Positions 759-63,505 of a stretch of DNA of 64,000 bases are shown one piece after another (the first letter of the stretch is position 1; every line of letters starts with the position of its first letter). This stretch comes from Candidatus Paceibacter sp. (lineage in GTDB: Bacteria; Patescibacteriota; Patescibacteriia; Magasanikbacterales; UBA922), in contig DYFM01000002.1 of NCBI GenBank assembly GCA_020725175.1, positions 36,880 through 100,879 on the forward strand. The letters run 5' to 3'. The position numbers and the translations under genes were made by a program. Under the pieces are notes generated by a model, which saw only the letters and a program-made list of their open reading frames with translations, was not told the DNA's origin and did no database searches.

Positions 759-872
759 ATTTTTATATTGTTGATAGGAACACGGATTGAACTGATTGGA
801 CGGATGGTAACGGATTGCTTTGATTTGCTAATATTCGTTTCATTCGTTCAATCCGCGCTCTATTATCAAGGG

Positions 873-1118
873 TTATGAAATGTAAATAAATCGTGGTACT
901 CGCTTCCCCGTCACCAGCACCATCTCAGTAAACATGTTGATCGGTCGAGCAAACGTCGGATCTTTGCCACATTCTTCTTCAAGCTGTGCATTTGTATACA
1001 GTGGTTTATACAAAACAAGGGTTTCGTGAGTTTCTGTGTGCAGTGCAAAACCAATTACTTGATACTCGTGCCCTTTGTAGTGCTTGTAAATTCCAAGTGG
1101 AATAGTTTGTAGTGACAT
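873..1118 (-). CDS. DUF1653-like small protein
   Basis: 81 aa with the 'YKHYKGHEYQV' motif typical of DUF1653. Confidence 0.45.
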   Translation of the reverse strand: MSLQTIPLGIYKHYKGHEYQVIGFALHTETHETLVLYKPLYTNAQLEEECGKDPTFARPINMFTEMVLVTGKRVPRFIYIS

Positions 1119-1126
1119 AAACGAAT

Positions 1127-2365
1127 TTACTTTTTCTTTGAGTCTGACAAATCATACGGTATTGTATGTCGCCAGCCAAAACTTTGCATCGTCCAGTCAA
1201 AAACAATCCGTAGTTTTCGGGTAATGCCGGGCATAAAAAGAACGTAGGCGGTTCGGCGAAGCCACCAAGCAAGCCGGCCGGTAAACACGTACTTGTTCCA
1301 CAAGATCATGATACCAAACCAGTCACCAATTGGCATAAGCGACAGATGTTGCCGAAAACCAAATTCGTTCATTGTAAAACCGGCAATAGTTTTCGCCAGA
1401 TGTAGTCCCACATATTGACCAGCCACATGGGCCACTTCACCGAGTTGGGGGACCGGCTCAGATTCTCCCGGGTTACTAAAGCAAGCAATGTCTCCGACTG
1501 CGTAGAGAGATCGATAGTTGCGGTGGCGCAAAGACTGATCCGTGGGGACTCTTCCGCGTTCACAGAGTGTCTCCGGTAAAAAAGATGGTGCGATTTGCGC
1601 GAATCCGGTTGACCAAATGGTGAGATTACTGACAGTCCGCTCTCCTGTTCCAAGAAGTACTGCTTCTTTTTCTACTCCGGTTACTGTGGTGTTCGTTCGA
1701 ACTGTTATCTCATAGGCTTCAAGACGTGTTCGAGCAATTACCCGAGCTTTTTTTGGCGCGTTTGGGAGAATGTCGTCTCCACTTTGCAGAAGAGTGATCG
1801 AGAGGTTTTTCTTTGGATAGAGGCGTTTCAGTTCGTGTTGCTTGATATCGCCAAGTTGACCGGCCAGCTCAATACCGGTATACCCACCACCGACAATAAC
1901 GATTGAAATATTATCGGTAGTTTCAAACAACGAGAACAACTCACTTTGGAGTGCGGTAGCGGATCTGAGGGAGCGAATTTCTCGTGCGTATGTATTTGCG
2001 CCGGGAACATTGTAGAAGTTGGTTTTGCTCCCTAGAGCCATGACGCAGTATTCATACGTAATTTCTCCGGCGGTGGTACGAACCGTCTTTGTGTCTGGGT
2101 CAACATTCAATACCTCGGTTTGTAAAAATTCATGACCTTGGTTTGTTGTTACCAACTCTCGAAGCGGGATACTAGCATGCATGGGGAGAACAGAACCGGT
2201 AGCCACCTCATGTAGAAGTGGAATAAAGGTAAAAAACGCTTCTTTGTCTACAAGCGTAATTTTTTTTTGTATCTTTCGCTTTTTTAGTTCTTTTTGTAGT
2301 GTGCGAAATGTTTCGTACCCACCAATGCCGGCTCCTAAAATAAGAATATCCGTGTGCATAAACAT
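1127..2365 (-). CDS. ndh: type II NADH:quinone oxidoreductase (NDH-2), FAD-dependent pyridine nucleotide-disulfide oxidoreductase
   Basis: Two Rossmann GxGxxG motifs ('ILILGAGIGG', 'IVIVGGGYTGIELAG') and the overall NDH-2 architecture. Confidence 0.7.
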   Translation of the reverse strand: MFMHTDILILGAGIGGYETFRTLQKELKKRKIQKKITLVDKEAFFTFIPLLHEVATGSVLPMHASIPLRELVTTNQGHEFLQTEVLNVDPDTKTVRTTAGEITYEYCVMALGSKTNFYNVPGANTYAREIRSLRSATALQSELFSLFETTDNISIVIVGGGYTGIELAGQLGDIKQHELKRLYPKKNLSITLLQSGDDILPNAPKKARVIARTRLEAYEITVRTNTTVTGVEKEAVLLGTGERTVSNLTIWSTGFAQIAPSFLPETLCERGRVPTDQSLRHRNYRSLYAVGDIACFSNPGESEPVPQLGEVAHVAGQYVGLHLAKTIAGFTMNEFGFRQHLSLMPIGDWFGIMILWNKYVFTGRLAWWLRRTAYVLFMPGITRKLRIVFDWTMQSFGWRHTIPYDLSDSKKK

Positions 2366-2790
2366 TATGATGTTTTTGTGGTTGTTTCAGTCAATTTTTT
2401 GAGCATAGTTTTTATCTCTTCCAGATCTTTTTGCATATCTCGTACTTCCCGCTCAGCTTTTCGGTTGACGGCATAATCATATTGCGCAGTAATACGGTCA
2501 CGTTCGCTTTGGCGGTTTTGGCTCATGAGGATCATTGGAGCCTGAAAAGCGGCCAAGCAGGATAGGGTGAGATTGAGTAAAATAAATGGATACGGATCCC
2601 AACCACGCACCCAACCAATGGTGTTTATTCCCATCCAAAACAAAATATAGGTGAGAAAAGCAATGATAAATTTCCAACTACCAAGAAACTTGGTTACTGT
2701 ATCAGCGGCTTTTTGCCCAAAGGTACGCTGTTTTCGTTTGGTGATTATGGGGTGTTGAGCTTCGTTTTTGTGAAGAAGGGGGAGGTTCAT
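2365..2790 (-). CDS. DUF1003 family membrane protein
   Basis: 'WDPYPFILLNLTLSCLAAFQAPMILMSQNRQSERDR' matches the conserved DUF1003 core; two TM helices. Confidence 0.5.
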   Translation of the reverse strand: MNLPLLHKNEAQHPIITKRKQRTFGQKAADTVTKFLGSWKFIIAFLTYILFWMGINTIGWVRGWDPYPFILLNLTLSCLAAFQAPMILMSQNRQSERDRITAQYDYAVNRKAEREVRDMQKDLEEIKTMLKKLTETTTKTS

Positions 2791-2855
2791 ACAAATAATG
2801 TTAGATGCAAAAAGTATAGCATACCAAAGGCACTTCGCCTAGCTGGTGTGGGGTT

Positions 2856-3494
2856 GTGCGAGTCCAAATTCGTGATATACTTATGGATATGCTACATATG
2901 AAACCATTTCTTCCGATTCAGGCTGTTCGCGATGTATTGATTCGTCACCGACGTATTGTTTTTTTACTGATTCTCTTGTGGTTTGGGTCTATCGGGCTGG
3001 GTTTTTTGGTGCCGGATGATCTAAAACAAGAGCTTCTCAAAGGATTTGCTGAAAAAGTGGCTGGGGTCGAGGACATGGGGACGCTCGGAATCATTGGGTA
3101 TATTGTTTGGAACAATCTCAAGGTCTCATTTCTTACGGTGGTGCTTGGGGTTTTTCTCATTATTCCTGTGATTATTTTGTTCATCAATGGTCTAATTATT
3201 GGGGTGATAGCGGATCAGGTGCAGGCTATTGCCGGGGTTTCACTTGGTGCACTTCTTCTTAGTCTTCTTCCGCATGGAATACTTGAGATTCCGGCTATTT
3301 TGTTATCAGGAATTCTTGGAACCATGCTTGGGGTAAAGCTGTATTTTTCCAAACAGTTTGCTCCGGAGCACACCAGAAAAGCGTTCATAAAAGAAATTTT
3401 TGTTGTGTATATGGCGGTTGTCGTGCCGCTATTATTAGTGGCCGCAGTTATCGAAGCGACCGTGAGTACATTTTTGGCTGGAAAATTAATATAG
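2856..3494 (+). CDS. SpoIIM-like / DUF95 integral membrane protein
   Basis: Polytopic membrane protein whose topology and motifs resemble the stage II sporulation protein M family. Confidence 0.35.
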   Translation: MRVQIRDILMDMLHMKPFLPIQAVRDVLIRHRRIVFLLILLWFGSIGLGFLVPDDLKQELLKGFAEKVAGVEDMGTLGIIGYIVWNNLKVSFLTVVLGVFLIIPVIILFINGLIIGVIADQVQAIAGVSLGALLLSLLPHGILEIPAILLSGILGTMLGVKLYFSKQFAPEHTRKAFIKEIFVVYMAVVVPLLLVAAVIEATVSTFLAGKLI

Positions 3495-3584
3495 ACACGA
3501 GATGCAAGTTACGAAAGTACGAATATCTGCGAATATACGAATACATTGATTAGAATTTGATTTAGGATTTTTGATGTTTGATTT

Positions 3585-62631: not shown

Positions 62632-62663
62632 CTTTTTGTGTAATTCTGGTATTGTATACGTAT

Positions 62664-62909
62664 ATGAAAAAAATAAAAAAACAACTTTATTCATTTCCAG
62701 TTGTAATTGAAAAAGACGAAAATGGCGTCTATATTGGTCGTGTACCGGAATTGAAAAGTTGCTATACTCACGCAAAAACATTGCCGGAACTGTATAAACG
62801 GTTGGAAGAGGTGGTGGCACTATGTGTTGAGGTAGAGAAGAAGTATTTTCACGAAGAGCCAGCGCAAAATGAGTTTTTAGGAGTACAAAAGTTACAATTT
62901 TCCATATAG
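62664..62909 (+). CDS. hicB: HicB-family antitoxin
   Basis: 'YSFPVVIEKDENGVYIGRVPELKSCYTHAKTLPELYKRLEEVVALCVE' matches the HicB N-domain pattern. Confidence 0.6.
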   Translation: MKKIKKQLYSFPVVIEKDENGVYIGRVPELKSCYTHAKTLPELYKRLEEVVALCVEVEKKYFHEEPAQNEFLGVQKLQFSI

Positions 62910-62910
62910 T

Positions 62911-63153
62911 TTGACATTAGGGGGTATGGTCCGACTTGTTCCAATTAAAGCAAAAAAGTTGATTCGTTTGCTTGAAGAACTTGGTTTTGAGATGGTTCGG
63001 AAAAAGGGTAGTCATCGTTTTTTCATTCATCCAGAAACAAAACGAACGGTGACCATTCCTGACCATGGTTCCGAGGATATACCGGTTGGTTTACTACGAA
63101 GTATTTTGCGGGATATTGATATGGATGTTGACACATTTGATAAATTAAGATAA
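62911..63153 (+). CDS. hicA: HicA-family mRNA interferase toxin
   Basis: 'LIRLLEELGFEMVRKKGSHRFFIHPETKRTVTIPDHGSEDIPVGLLRSILRDI'. Confidence 0.7.
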   Translation: MTLGGMVRLVPIKAKKLIRLLEELGFEMVRKKGSHRFFIHPETKRTVTIPDHGSEDIPVGLLRSILRDIDMDVDTFDKLR

Positions 63154-63226
63154 AAAGAATAAAAGCGTCAGTACCTGCTATCAACAGGGAAAGTCCAACG
63201 AGAGTTGGGTGCGCTGAAAAAAGAAC

Positions 63227-63300
63227 CCGGCTCCGCTACGCTGCGCCGGACAGGTCAAACAGTATGGTTTTAACCTGTCCAGTTTTAGTTGAGGAGACGA
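63227..63300 (+). terminator. terminator hairpin after hicA
   Basis: GGACAGGTcaaacagtatggttttaACCTGTCC followed by AGTTTTAGTT. Confidence 0.5.
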
Positions 63301-63423
63301 AGTAGAATTTTCCGGGAGAGCCCGTTATTGCTCTAAATAAAGTGTTTCCGATTTTTCGGAAGAAGTAGGATGGTACCGTTCTGACTCAGTCGGAATTCCT
63401 GCACCTTGTTTAGGTGTTTTTTT

Positions 63424-63505
63424 AATAGACCGCGGATTTAACGGATGAGACGAATTTGAACGAATTCGTTTTTATCTGTTCAATTCGTTAAATCCGCGGT
63501 CTATT
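63424..63505. repeat. TAGACCGCGG..CCGCGGTCTA-family palindromic element (best-preserved copy)
   Basis: AATAGACCGCGGATTTAACGGATGAGACGAATTTGAACGAATTCGTTTTTATCTGTTCAATTCGTTAAATCCGCGGTCTATTT. Confidence 0.7.

Follow-up and report, generated by a model that had tools for sequence, protein, structure and literature searches.

Correia elements of Neisseria target TA, have no known transposase, and form a hairpin that RNase III binds or cleaves (PMC2649163). RNase III also cuts the 28-bp stem of the Coxiella intervening sequence (IVS), which contains variable GACAGAT heptamers (PMC4990558), and the rRNA genes of CPR bacteria carry IVP ORFs as well as short insertions without an ORF at IVS sites of the RNase III type (PMC11270868). 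REPs are 20-40 nt long, bear a GTAG/CGTC tag, and flank a RAYT gene (PMC3733652). Heptamers of the TAACTGA/STRR type occur as one unit in phyla that are far apart, and no mechanism for their transfer is known (PMC4679880).

The window analyzed here is a stretch of 64,000 nt from a small CPR genome whose intergenic spacers contain many hairpin elements of 80-200 nt with arms made of short tandem repeats. An element consists of two inverted arms of tandem 6-11-nt units; these close directly or enclose a further module of this kind or a small gene, either for a four-helix-bundle/IVP protein or for a GxxExxY nuclease. Inverted and tandem seeds in the window were 4-11 times more frequent than in shuffles, and most of them lay in non-coding DNA. 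For example, there were 206 inverted 10-mers within 250 nt as against 47.5 in shuffles (shuffle maximum 62), and non-coding DNA, only 15% of the window, held 71% of them; tandem 8-mers with a period of 6-11 numbered 96 as against 8.6. The dispersed oligo-repeat palindromes reported by a first-pass annotation are real, and every sequence that it listed was found where it had been placed, although its interpretation as a whole is partly supported. Two of its palindromes, 3497-3580 and 13145-13195, are direct arrays instead, and its claim that nearly all spacers above 80 bp contain a hairpin was overstated: about 19 of 36 carry one, and 4 more carry partial arrays.

Sequence families exist within the genome. 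Families 1 and 2 each have copies at sites that are not linked, as do the AAGATT, TACGAAC, and AAATTGG types, and these copies have non-repeat sequence in common. The AACAGAT, AAATCAT, and GCCTTGTAA types are present in one copy each in the window and could have originated in place. The earlier proposal of dispersed families with shared termini, as opposed to unrelated low-complexity hairpins, is borne out by the agreement of profile, family-2 alignment, and de novo repeats, and the other palindrome families it had named (TACGGAT with GCAGAGTAAGC, CGAAATA, AACAGAT, AAATCAT, AAATTGG, and GCCTTGTAA) were recovered as well.

Family 1 is a palindrome of ~82 nt, ATAGACCGCGGATT-N-AACGGAT..., in which GGAT is spaced ~10 nt. 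Its arms were scored with a half-arm profile. Both arms had E<=1e-6 at 779-863, 29772-29853, 33983-34065, 59098-59175, and 63424-63505, and 45761-45843 had one strong and one weak arm. At least seven copies had been claimed in the window, seven of them with coordinates; six of these are solid, and the remaining one (7907-8012) is a diverged, marginal relative at E 0.005 that has ATAGACC and TTTAACGGAT in common with the others and is the sole case with A/T runs on its flanks. De novo repeat finding also yielded the family, with 65-78% identity across 83 nt, and a search for TAGACCGCGGATT at up to 2 mismatches gave 7 matches where 0.96 were expected.

The other families vary in how their arms are built. 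The second family-2 copy (56379..56605) has a duplication of its left outer units and has lost its right inner arm. The inverted repeat 56940-56995 / 57329-57360 encloses an ORF (56979-57284), and the + strand pairing of the 50720..50870 arrays is mostly G-U. Modules are also nested at hairpin apexes. The inner module of the family-2 composites occurs free, a soil subfamily lies within a longer palindrome, Hymenobacter has composites, and an insert common to L023 and L029 sits at the apex.

Table. Repeat elements and enclosed genes in the window (positions within the 64,000-nt stretch).
Positions	Strand	Feature	Context or evidence
779..863	.	Family-1 palindrome, diverged termini TAGGAACACGGATT ... 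AATCCGCGCTCTAT	Arms E 3e-7, 8e-7; spacer of DUF1653 / pseudouridine synthase genes (both -), 9 nt past stop
7907..8012	.	Distant family-1 relative, AAAATAGACCTTCGGG...TTTAACGGAT	E 0.005
16166..16345	.	Family-2 composite hairpin: outer arms TACGGAT/TACGGAG, inner arms GCAGAGTAAGC units	-102 kcal/mol
28698..28881	.	AAGATT/GAGAAT-armed hairpin without enclosed gene	rpsF-ssb spacer; absent from first-pass annotation
29772..29853	.	Family-1 palindrome	Downstream of rpsR (29443-29658); profile and de novo repeats
31033..31066	+	Left arm (AAGATT)n of IVP cassette	
31096..31464	+	Four-helix-bundle protein gene, PF05635 23S_rRNA_IVP, TIGR02436	E 2e-21
31524..31566	+	Right arm (CAACCT)n(TAATCT)n	Complement of 31033-31066
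33983..34065	.	Family-1 palindrome	In + strand operon, 9 nt past stop of pilin-like gene
41979..42024	+	Arm A1, TACGAAC units	43/46 complementary to 42681-42726; z 34.8
42208..42612	+	GxxExxY protein gene, PF13366 PDDEXK_3, TIGR04256	E 1e-23, 2e-25
42615..42726	.	TACGAAC hairpin	A2 (42615-42663) + A2' (42681-42726)
43754..43836	.	GCAGAGTA(A/G)GC module	Family-2 inner module as free-standing hairpin
45761..45843	.	Family-1 palindrome, left arm decayed	28 nt past T4SS-pilin gene stop
48644..48736	.	CGAAATA-unit hairpin, period 8	Adjoins tRNA-His
49521..49614	.	(AACAGAT)n hairpin	3' of xer-like recombinase gene
50720..50870	.	GCCTTGTAA-type 9-mer arrays	Over annotated 5' end of xer-like ORF
56379..56605	.	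Family-2 composite, second copy	80% identity; de novo repeats
56940..56995	.	AAATTGG/CCAAAT-type array	Inverted repeat with 57329-57360, z 5.8
57262..57358	.	AAATTGG-type hairpin	Third arm copy at 9667-9697
58335..58405	.	(AAATCAT/AAATCCT)n hairpin	Spacer of rpe / thioredoxin-reductase-like gene
59098..59175	.	Family-1 palindrome, termini TAGGAACGCGGATT	rpiB/rpe spacer (both -)
63424..63505	.	Family-1 best copy, two perfect termini	Abuts stop codon of - strand gene 63506-63871; canonical terminator 63401-63417 precedes it

Two small, 'selfish-type' genes lie between arms. The IVP gene occupies the 'loop' between AAGATT arms (31033-31566), whose z of 14.5 was the highest among 70 window genes (median 0.5). 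IVP genes of other phyla had similar arms at 4 of 6 other loci (z 4.9, 9.4, 8.3, and 15.9), and related IVPs, 64% identical, have AAGATT/GAGATT arms in common although their genomic surroundings are unrelated. The GxxExxY product is a small PD-(D/E)XK nuclease-fold protein whose gene has TACGAAC arms on either side; A2 is a direct copy of A1, and A2' can pair with either of them. The enclosure of IVP and GxxExxY genes by such arms links the elements to ribosomal-RNA intervening sequences. For family 1 the link to the gene cassettes is architectural only, because no family-1 locus contains an IVP or GxxExxY gene. The first-pass annotation had included neither the arms around 31096-31464 nor the TACGAAC arms around 42208-42612, and the intervening-sequence link and the cross-phylum conservation were likewise absent from it.

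The 21-nt terminus of family 1 is also present in Ignavibacteriota, Chloroflexota, Acidobacteriota, and Bacteroidota and in 35 metagenome contigs. It was found at 13 genome loci, as against ~0.5 expected by our own estimate, and the 35 metagenome loci ranged in G+C from 0.31 to 0.64, with cores adapted to host G+C. The family consensus is AATAGACCGCGGATTgAACGGATT.aACGGAT..caCGGAT. The termini and phased CGGAT units are conserved over at least five bacterial phyla. Usually the outer end lies directly against a stop codon or overlaps it: the overlap was seen at L002, L005 (both sides), L006, L007, L008, L017, L021, and L034, and at ~12 further loci the stop codon was 0-25 nt from the terminus.

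Evidence of insertional behavior also came from Hymenobacter, where the orthologous 3' end of DUF8428 carries a family-1 element in L006, L034, and L059 but not in L058, L060, L061, and L062. A copy was gained or lost between species at this one site. With its cross-phylum conservation, apex nesting, and this polymorphism, family 1 behaves like an insertional element. The elements are not REPs, as they have neither the 20-40 nt length nor the GTAG/CGTC tag. The RAYT/IS200-like transposase suggested as their partner did not appear: Pfam and NCBIfam searches of the window gave no such gene or other transposase, and near 48 copies elsewhere there was no transposase, RAYT, or recurrent neighbor gene. 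Rfam gave no match to the elements. No target-site duplication was demonstrable.

The elements had been described as terminator-like and as lying between convergent and divergent genes. Most are instead located between co-directional genes, inside operons. A T-run follows the stem in 1 of 16 elements, and a terminator scan detected none of the hairpin elements but found separate canonical terminators in the same region. The intrinsic-terminator reading was rejected on these grounds: no U-tract, location in operons, and distinctness from the canonical terminators of the genome.

How did these elements arise, and what might they do? With middling confidence, we propose a superfamily of small foldback insertion elements that combine MITE-like dispersal with IVS-like architecture and form RNase III-type stems once transcribed. 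New copies would arise by insertion, for which TA or the apex of a hairpin is the probable target, and a putative trans-acting factor that recognizes the units and the conserved terminus would drive it. Slippage and intrastrand template switching would then lengthen the arms and keep them symmetric. Within operons, their transcripts are predicted to form stems that are long but imperfect and interrupted at regular intervals by internal loops. By analogy with the 23S IVS and Correia elements, these stems may act between cistrons as RNase III-type sites for processing or stability and would have no intrinsic-terminator role. Several results speak against this reading: the negative searches for a transposase, RAYT, or recurrent neighbor gene, the lack of a demonstrable target-site duplication, the purely architectural link of family 1 to the cassettes, the possible origin in place of single-copy types, and the covariation and strand-fold results given below.

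The DNA itself may instead be what is recognized. The phased CGGAT arrays of family 1 could be double-stranded platforms for a putative conserved DNA-binding protein, such as a nucleoid factor, a boundary factor, or an accessory protein of a recombinase; the potential to form hairpins would then be a by-product of facing arrays. Unit sequence and ~10-nt (helical) phasing are conserved far better than spacer pairing. Spacer positions are paired in just 30-60% of copies and covariation is weak (term -0.14; pairing 82.0% vs 79.9% in shuffles), indicating that the main constraint is on unit sequence rather than on the helix. Half-arrays are solitary at L006, L021, L011, L017, L037, L043, and L049, arms elsewhere are 215-961 nt apart or back to back, and the element has no orientation preference relative to transcription. 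Sense folds were no stabler than antisense folds (6 of 6 less stable in the window), so that selection on an mRNA hairpin gains no support. However, we regard DNA platforms as unlikely. The arms within an element covary above shuffles (0/500), apex-proximal units are often perfect complements including element-specific spacers (L016, L014, L007), and the arrays have no candidate protein associated with them. Other families of the same genome have unrelated units with 6-9 nt periods, and helical phasing is therefore not general.

It is also improbable that most of the elements are ordinary local transcript-end or mRNA-stabilizing hairpins that grew where they stand through slippage of units and correction of quasi-palindromes, with families that are only apparent and immobile. 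Such growth would suit the three single-copy types, the variation in unit number between arms and between copies, and the variable heptamer copy number across Coxiella strains (PMC4990558), but it sits poorly with the unlinked recurrence of five families with shared non-repeat sequence, with the conservation and orthologous-site polymorphism of family 1, and with stems that have no U-tract in a genome with separate canonical terminators. Arrays of a known guide-RNA or recombination system (TIGR-Tas, CRISPR-like, or integron attC (CALIN)) are scarcely credible, even though TIGR arrays are frequent in CPR bacteria and have no conserved sequence (PMC12045711), the elements, like attC sites, come after the ends of genes, and a tyrosine recombinase gene is present at 49655-50869. 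TIGR arrays are direct, with 36-nt units, 9-nt spacers, and UG...CCA boxes, and lie beside a Nop-domain tas gene (PMC12045711). The present elements have periods of 6-11 nt and form inverted arrays at dispersed sites, and Pfam searches found no Nop protein in the window. The attC R''/R' motifs occur in only 1 of 27 copies, the recombinase is Xer-like (above the XerA cut-off, far below those of integron integrases), and housekeeping genes are on the flanks. Tests of array format, Nop, attC motifs, and recombinase thus contradict this reading.

Among known systems, REP/BIME/REPIN sequences are likewise abundant extragenic palindromes in operons that form within-genome families and have a proposed mRNA-stability role, but the elements described here are 80-200 nt long and have unit-repeat arms, an ATAGACC terminus, and no RAYT found. 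Cyanobacterial STRR and the TAACTGA repeats of Beggiatoaceae, Cyanobacteria, and Bacteroidetes are also short tandem 7-mers concentrated in intergenic DNA; they form direct arrays mostly just 5' of start codons (one inverted set is reported), whereas the arrays here are paired, inverted, and mostly directly past stop codons. Organelle hairpin-forming repeats, such as those of sponge mitochondria, invade intergenic regions with no known means of mobilization (PMC2800124); they differ in host compartment and have no sequence in common with the elements here.

Correia elements (CREE/NEMIS) are likewise foldback elements, of 100-155 bp with ~26-bp terminal inverted repeats, numerous beside genes and co-transcribed with them (PMC2649163). 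Their terminus TATAG[CT]GGATTAAC resembles the family-1 AATAG(ACCG)CGGATT(N)AAC, a likeness that needs two indels and may be chance. CREE are restricted to Neisseria, their unique core contains an IHF site, and their arms are not tandem units, whereas family 1, with its phased CGGAT units, extends over at least five phyla. The 23S rRNA IVS with an S23p/IVP ORF (Coxiella, Leptospira, CPR) shares a long terminal stem that is empty or holds a PF05635 ORF, an arm with tandem heptamers of variable copy number, insertion at hairpin tips, and suspected horizontal spread (PMC4990558, PMC11270868). The Coxiella GACAGAT heptamer is one base off the AACAGAT unit of 49521..49614. Unlike the 23S IVS, the elements here lie between protein-coding genes rather than in rRNA, RNase III excision is putative for them, many families occur per genome, and their cargo includes a second kind of gene, that for a GxxExxY nuclease.

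Inverted 10-mers lying no more than 250 nt apart occur 206 times in the window compared with 47.5 times in dinucleotide shuffles (maximum 62), and the non-coding DNA, which makes up 15% of the window, carries 71% of them. Likewise, tandem 8-mers with a period of 6-11 nt number 96 against 8.6 in shuffles; the G+C content of the window is about 41%. YchF shares 84% identity with proteins assigned to Candidatus Magasanikbacteria, in keeping with a CPR/Patescibacteria source. All sequences listed in the first-pass annotation were found where they had been placed, and de novo repeat finding recovered family 1, a palindrome of ~82 nt built from phased CGGAT units, at 65-78% identity over 83 nt. 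Seven family-1 copies had been proposed. A family-1 half-arm profile detected both arms in five of them, and the copies at 7907 and 45761 were weaker. The claim that almost every longer spacer carries an element was overstated: among the 36 gaps measuring 80 nt or more, about 19 contain a hairpin. Two supposed palindromes (3497-3580 and 13145-13195) are direct arrays. An assembly artefact was rejected because the same proteins are found on NCBI, JGI, and Logan contigs, and because family 1 is also present in isolate Hymenobacter genomes.

The half-arm consensus of family 1, derived from 81 distinct arms, reads A-ATAGACCGCGGATT-g-AACGGATT-n-aACGGAT-ttnca-CGGAT, with GGAT recurring every 9.5-10 nt. 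Arms may form tight palindromes, stand singly or back to back, or be separated by 215-961 nt. A full copy is predicted to form a stem of 32 pairs, interrupted at the spacers by small internal loops. Across 27 aligned copies, pairing is seen in 85-95% of sequences at unit positions and in only 30-60% at spacers. Pairing in these copies is slightly above that of shuffles (82.0% vs 79.9%, 0/500), and the RNAalifold covariation term is negligible, the signal being dominated by the conserved units. Because units pair far more than spacers and covariation is weak, the strongest constraint lies on the terminus and the sequence of the units, which points to recognition by a protein. The sense strand has no overall advantage in fold stability (11 antisense : 5 sense), which lends no support to selection at the RNA level. 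All six window copies that lie between co-directional genes (775-59175) favor the antisense strand, whose fold is 3-15 kcal/mol more stable than the mRNA fold (p about 0.03, sign test). The ten copies compared from elsewhere were evenly divided (5:5).

How widely is family 1 distributed? Its terminal inverted repeats, ATAGACCGCGGATT and AATCCGCGGTCTAT, are found on 6-7 window copies and at 48 loci elsewhere; family 1 thus has the MITE hallmark of shared terminal inverted repeats on many dispersed non-coding copies. The search pattern ATAGACCGCGGATTNAACGRAT, for which we estimate ~0.5 chance occurrences in the genome collection, matched 13 loci there, in Melioribacter and Melioribacteraceae, three Chloroflexota lineages, Blastocatellia, Hymenobacter, and Candidatus Onstottus. 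It was also found in 35 metagenome contigs with a G+C content of 0.31 to 0.64. The termini are constant, and the cores track the G+C content of the host. The terminus had no match in the viral contigs scanned, and blastn gave no plasmid match for the family. MITE- and REP-type repeats are usually restricted to one genus. The occurrence of a ~45-nt non-coding arm common to CPR, Chloroflexota, Acidobacteriota, Bacteroidota, and Ignavibacteriota implies that a partner acting in trans is conserved as well, and we know of no one who has named it.

Family 1 is closely tied to stop codons. The TAG of its terminal ATAGACC is itself the stop of the facing gene at loci L002, L005 (on both sides), L006, L007, L008, L017, L021, and L034 of other genomes and metagenomes, and the facing stop lies within 25 nt at about 12 further loci. 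Window copies begin 0-28 nt past a stop, except for the copy at 29772-29853 (113 nt past rpsR), and finish about 20 nt ahead of the next start. They lie mostly between co-directional genes rather than between the convergent and divergent genes named in the first-pass annotation. Its description of the elements as terminator-like did not hold either. Those in the 44-64 kb region are absent from the 27 terminator-like sites of that region, and the elements lack the short G+C-rich stem followed by a U-tract that characterizes an intrinsic terminator; among the elements tested, only 7907-8012 has a T-run. Canonical terminators stand beside the elements, as at 63401-63417 immediately before the 63424 copy.

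Presence-absence polymorphism among relatives, a check suggested by the earlier reading, was observed at the 3' end of the DUF8428 gene of Hymenobacter. L006, L034, and L059 carry a half-element there that L058, L060, L061, and L062 lack, and the DUF8428 protein of one element-less genome is 92% identical. At filled sites, the half-element directly follows the stop codon (AAA TAG ACCGCGGATTTAACGG... or AAA TAA ACCGCAGATT...). The four empty sites read AAATAG (AAA TAG) and continue into an ordinary terminator. Because the TAG is kept at empty sites, TA(G) probably does not belong to the element but is target sequence or a duplicated TA. The flanks of family 1, A-TA-[GACC...GGTC]-TA-T, fit TA duplication in an ATAT-like target and fit an extended inverted repeat equally well. 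No relatives of the window's own lineage were found at 90% identity or above. A small G+C-rich hairpin follows the half-element in Hymenobacter, with the form GCCTGC-TGC-GCAGG in L006 (5481-5500) and GCTGC-TTT-GCAGC in L059 (~1700-1715), and related forms occur in L005, L008, and L021. It is placed upstream of the real terminator, and compensatory changes preserve its pairing.

The elements are modular and can be nested. The family-2 composite at 16166 is homologous to the one at 56379, with 80% identity; the outer arms consist of TACGGAT units and the inner arms of GCAGAGTAAGC units, and the inner module is free-standing at 43754. One subfamily of family 1, from soil, has asymmetric arms (left ATAGACCGCGG, right ATCGRCCACGG), and about 10 loci share a longer palindrome that carries it at the apex. 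In Hymenobacter, two terminator hairpins are wrapped by family-1 arms as an outer layer, and L023 and L029 share a palindromic insert at the family-1 apex.

Two oligo-repeat structures in the window enclose genes. In one, AAGATT arms surround a gene for a 23S_rRNA_IVP four-helix-bundle protein (IVP), whose closest named homologue comes from Candidatus Pacebacteria; these arms are the strongest gene-flanking inverted repeat among 70 window genes (z 14.5 vs median 0.5). PF05635, the Pfam family of this protein, includes Avd, the DGR accessory protein. In the other, arms matching at 43 of 46 positions (z 34.8) surround a gene for a GxxExxY protein, and a third arm is also present. IVP genes elsewhere lie in tight gaps within operons. 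Oligo-repeat arms surround them at four of six further loci (L050, L054, L056, and L063, from one further genome, Ignavibacteria, Anaerolineae, and Marinimicrobia), with GAGATT, TAATTGG, TGATGAC, and GTCATTCA as arm units. The L050 protein is 64% identical to the window IVP, in an unrelated context with the same AAGATT/GAGATT units. HMM and jackhmmer searches found neither IVP nor GxxExxY genes in family-1 loci, so the link between family 1 and the cassettes is one of architecture only. The ORFs between the distant family-1 arms of L041 had no Pfam match, and no IVP homologue was confirmed in viral contigs. At L050 (1501-1884), L052 (1501-1878), and L056 (1501-1980), which belong to separate genomes, the IVP gene directly follows a gene for a CoA-ligase/ATP-citrate-lyase-type subunit, and at two of these it lies between ligase and citrate-synthase-domain genes. 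This arrangement could reflect repeated insertion at one site or the conservation of an old insertion.

Elements, cassettes, and neighboring features of the window
Feature	Position	Description
Family-1 copy	779-863	both arms at E<=1e-6
Family-1 copy	7907-8012	marginal profile match only
Family-1 copy	29772-29853	both arms at E<=1e-6
Family-1 copy	33983-34065	both arms at E<=1e-6
Family-1 copy	45761-45843	one strong and one weak arm
Family-1 copy	59098-59175	both arms at E<=1e-6
Family-1 copy	63424-63505	both arms at E<=1e-6
Family-2 composite	16166-16345	
Family-2 composite	56379-56605	
Family-2 inner module	43754-43836	
Four-helix-bundle protein gene	31096-31464	PF05635 23S_rRNA_IVP, TIGR02436; IVP E 2e-21
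IVP cassette	31033-31566	inverted (AAGATT)n arms around IVP gene
GxxExxY PD-(D/E)XK protein gene	42208-42612	within 46-nt TACGAAC inverted repeat
ORF	56979-57284	101 aa, possibly a membrane protein (weak Imp-YgjV match)
Structured G+C-rich stretches	9560-9700, 42030-42190	non-coding; no Rfam match at E<=0.1
Likely chromosomal origin region	9740-10788	
parS-like palindromes	9740, 10417, 10493, 10562, 10726	TGTTTCACGTGAAACA, <=2 mismatches; 0.09 expected
DnaA-box-like cluster	10751-10788	TGTGGATAA, GTGGATAAC, GGGGATAAA
G+C-rich motif	13133-13192, 63231-63247	CTCCGCT(G/A)CGCTGCGCC; two occurrences vs 0.09 expected
T4SS_pilin genes	36505-47296	at least 10 consecutive genes with C-terminal PF18895 domain
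Xer-like tyrosine recombinase gene	49655-50869	passes XerA model cut-off
19-nt family-1-like string	49968-49986	GTTTTATCAGTTTTATCCG, inside the Xer-like recombinase gene
HicA toxin gene	62911-63153	PF07927, E 8e-23

Several other features of the window were observed. The 101-aa ORF has AAATTGG-type arms around it in a three-arm layout like that of the GxxExxY cassette, and could represent either a third type of cargo or a spurious ORF. Two stretches are unusually G+C-rich and strongly structured for an AT-rich genome such as this, and the GxxExxY gene has one of them as its 180-nt leader. The DnaA-box-like cluster lies within a 930-nt gap whose flanking genes are directed away on both sides, and GC skew climbs there with its sign unchanged. 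At 13133-13192, the G+C-rich motif is flanked by two direct copies of TGAAATAACGAAAT, an arrangement that resembles a small insertion whose target was duplicated. The T4SS_pilin genes form a large paralogous pilin-like array adjoining type IV pilus genes, in which a conserved 55-nt coding segment occurs seven times. About 66 N-terminal residues of the Xer-like recombinase have no domain and are encoded by 9-mer arrays (50720-50870), so its true start may be further downstream.

The best-supported reading is that these are foldback insertion elements, dispersed like MITEs or Correia elements and built like rRNA intervening sequences (IVSs). By analogy, their stems would act as RNase III-type sites between cistrons, and a trans-acting factor would mobilize them. 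Weighing against this reading, no transposase and no target-site duplication was found. Pfam/NCBIfam searches of the 64-kb window gave no transposase or parent insertion sequence with the same ends, and no gene recurs near the 48 family-1 copies, where ORF clustering gave orthologous neighbors only. Weak covariation, the lack of a sense-strand stability advantage, and the purely architectural link of family 1 to the gene cassettes are further weak points, and DNA-level binding arrays are a rival reading. For hairpin types present in a single copy, local growth of the hairpin is plausible.

Identification as TIGR arrays, attC sites, or terminators fails because the defining features of these are lacking. 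TIGR arrays consist of direct ~36-nt units (edge repeat, 9-nt spacer, loop repeat, 9-nt spacer) beside a Nop-domain tas gene (PMC12045711). The 6-11-nt periods, inverted arrangement, and dispersed sites of the elements rule out TIGR-Tas, and the window has no Nop-domain protein. The R'' (RYYYAAC) and R' (GTTRRRY) boxes of attC are both present in one of 27 copies, and the window recombinase passes the Xer model and, with a score of 139.9, falls short of the integron integrase cut-off of 265. The REP/MITE resemblance first proposed survives on the MITE side, in shared termini and insertion polymorphism, and fails for the REP definition and a parent transposase. REPs are imperfect palindromes of 20-40 nt with a GTAG or CGTC tag (PMC3733652), and REP/REPIN was ruled out by the 80-200-nt length and ATAGACC terminus of the elements. 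REP/RAYT was rejected as well: no repeat-flanked RAYT (IS200/IS605-like Y1 transposase) was found in the window, and the window proteins scanned contained no Y1 transposase domain of the RAYT/IS200-like kind anticipated earlier. Rfam scans of the window, single elements, and Chloroflexota loci gave nothing specific by gathering or E-value thresholds; only two tRNAs in the window reached gathering scores, and E-value matches were generic miRNA-precursor-like hairpins far below threshold. Family-1 14-mers did not occur in the full-text literature searched.

Could oligo-repeat hairpins, rRNA IVSs, and TIGR02436 and TIGR04256 genes be one cross-phylum class of mobile element? We regard this as unlikely. 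If they were, what the element recognizes would be structure (hairpin or cruciform apexes, a TA near a stop codon) and not a long stretch of target sequence, a small nuclease and/or helical-bundle protein would mobilize it in trans, and gene-less hairpins such as family 1 would be non-autonomous derivatives. TIGR02436 (four-helix-bundle/IVP, Avd-like) and TIGR04256 (GxxExxY PD-(D/E)XK nuclease) are widespread and very large orphan families. The joint reading, if true, would account for the origin of rRNA IVSs and the roles of both sets of proteins. The occurrence of IVP and GxxExxY genes in such arms outside rRNA connects IVSs, the two orphan families, and the abundant intergenic oligo-repeats, all three of them poorly understood, and makes IVS origin testable in cultivable carriers (Hymenobacter, Melioribacter, and Caldilinea). 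In practice, the elements produce spurious ORFs and can mislead terminator and sRNA prediction in metagenome-assembled genomes.

Among known systems, the CREE has a 26-bp inverted repeat beginning TATAG[CT]GGATTAAC..., a conserved core, and an IHF site; family 1 resembles it, with gaps, over the first ~14 nt only, and its core consists instead of phased CGGAT units. The likeness to IVSs is architectural. In the published Coxiella IVS, RNase III cuts a 28-bp stem, the GACAGAT heptamer is present in 2-4 copies, and the ORF is that of S23p (PMC4990558). CPR rRNA genes carry IVP ORFs as well as many short insertions that have no ORF and occupy RNase III-type IVS sites, for the most part at the tips of stem-loops (PMC11270868). 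The cassette at 31033-31566 shares with IVSs the stem of complementary termini, the optional PF05635 ORF, and the tandem units in the arm. However, IVSs lie in 23S (helix 25/45) or 16S rRNA, whereas the elements lie between protein-coding or tRNA genes, and the window contains no rRNA gene. The kind of element, a foldback MITE or IVS, is already known, while its conservation across phyla, its phased-unit arms, and its gene-bearing versions outside rRNA appear to be new.
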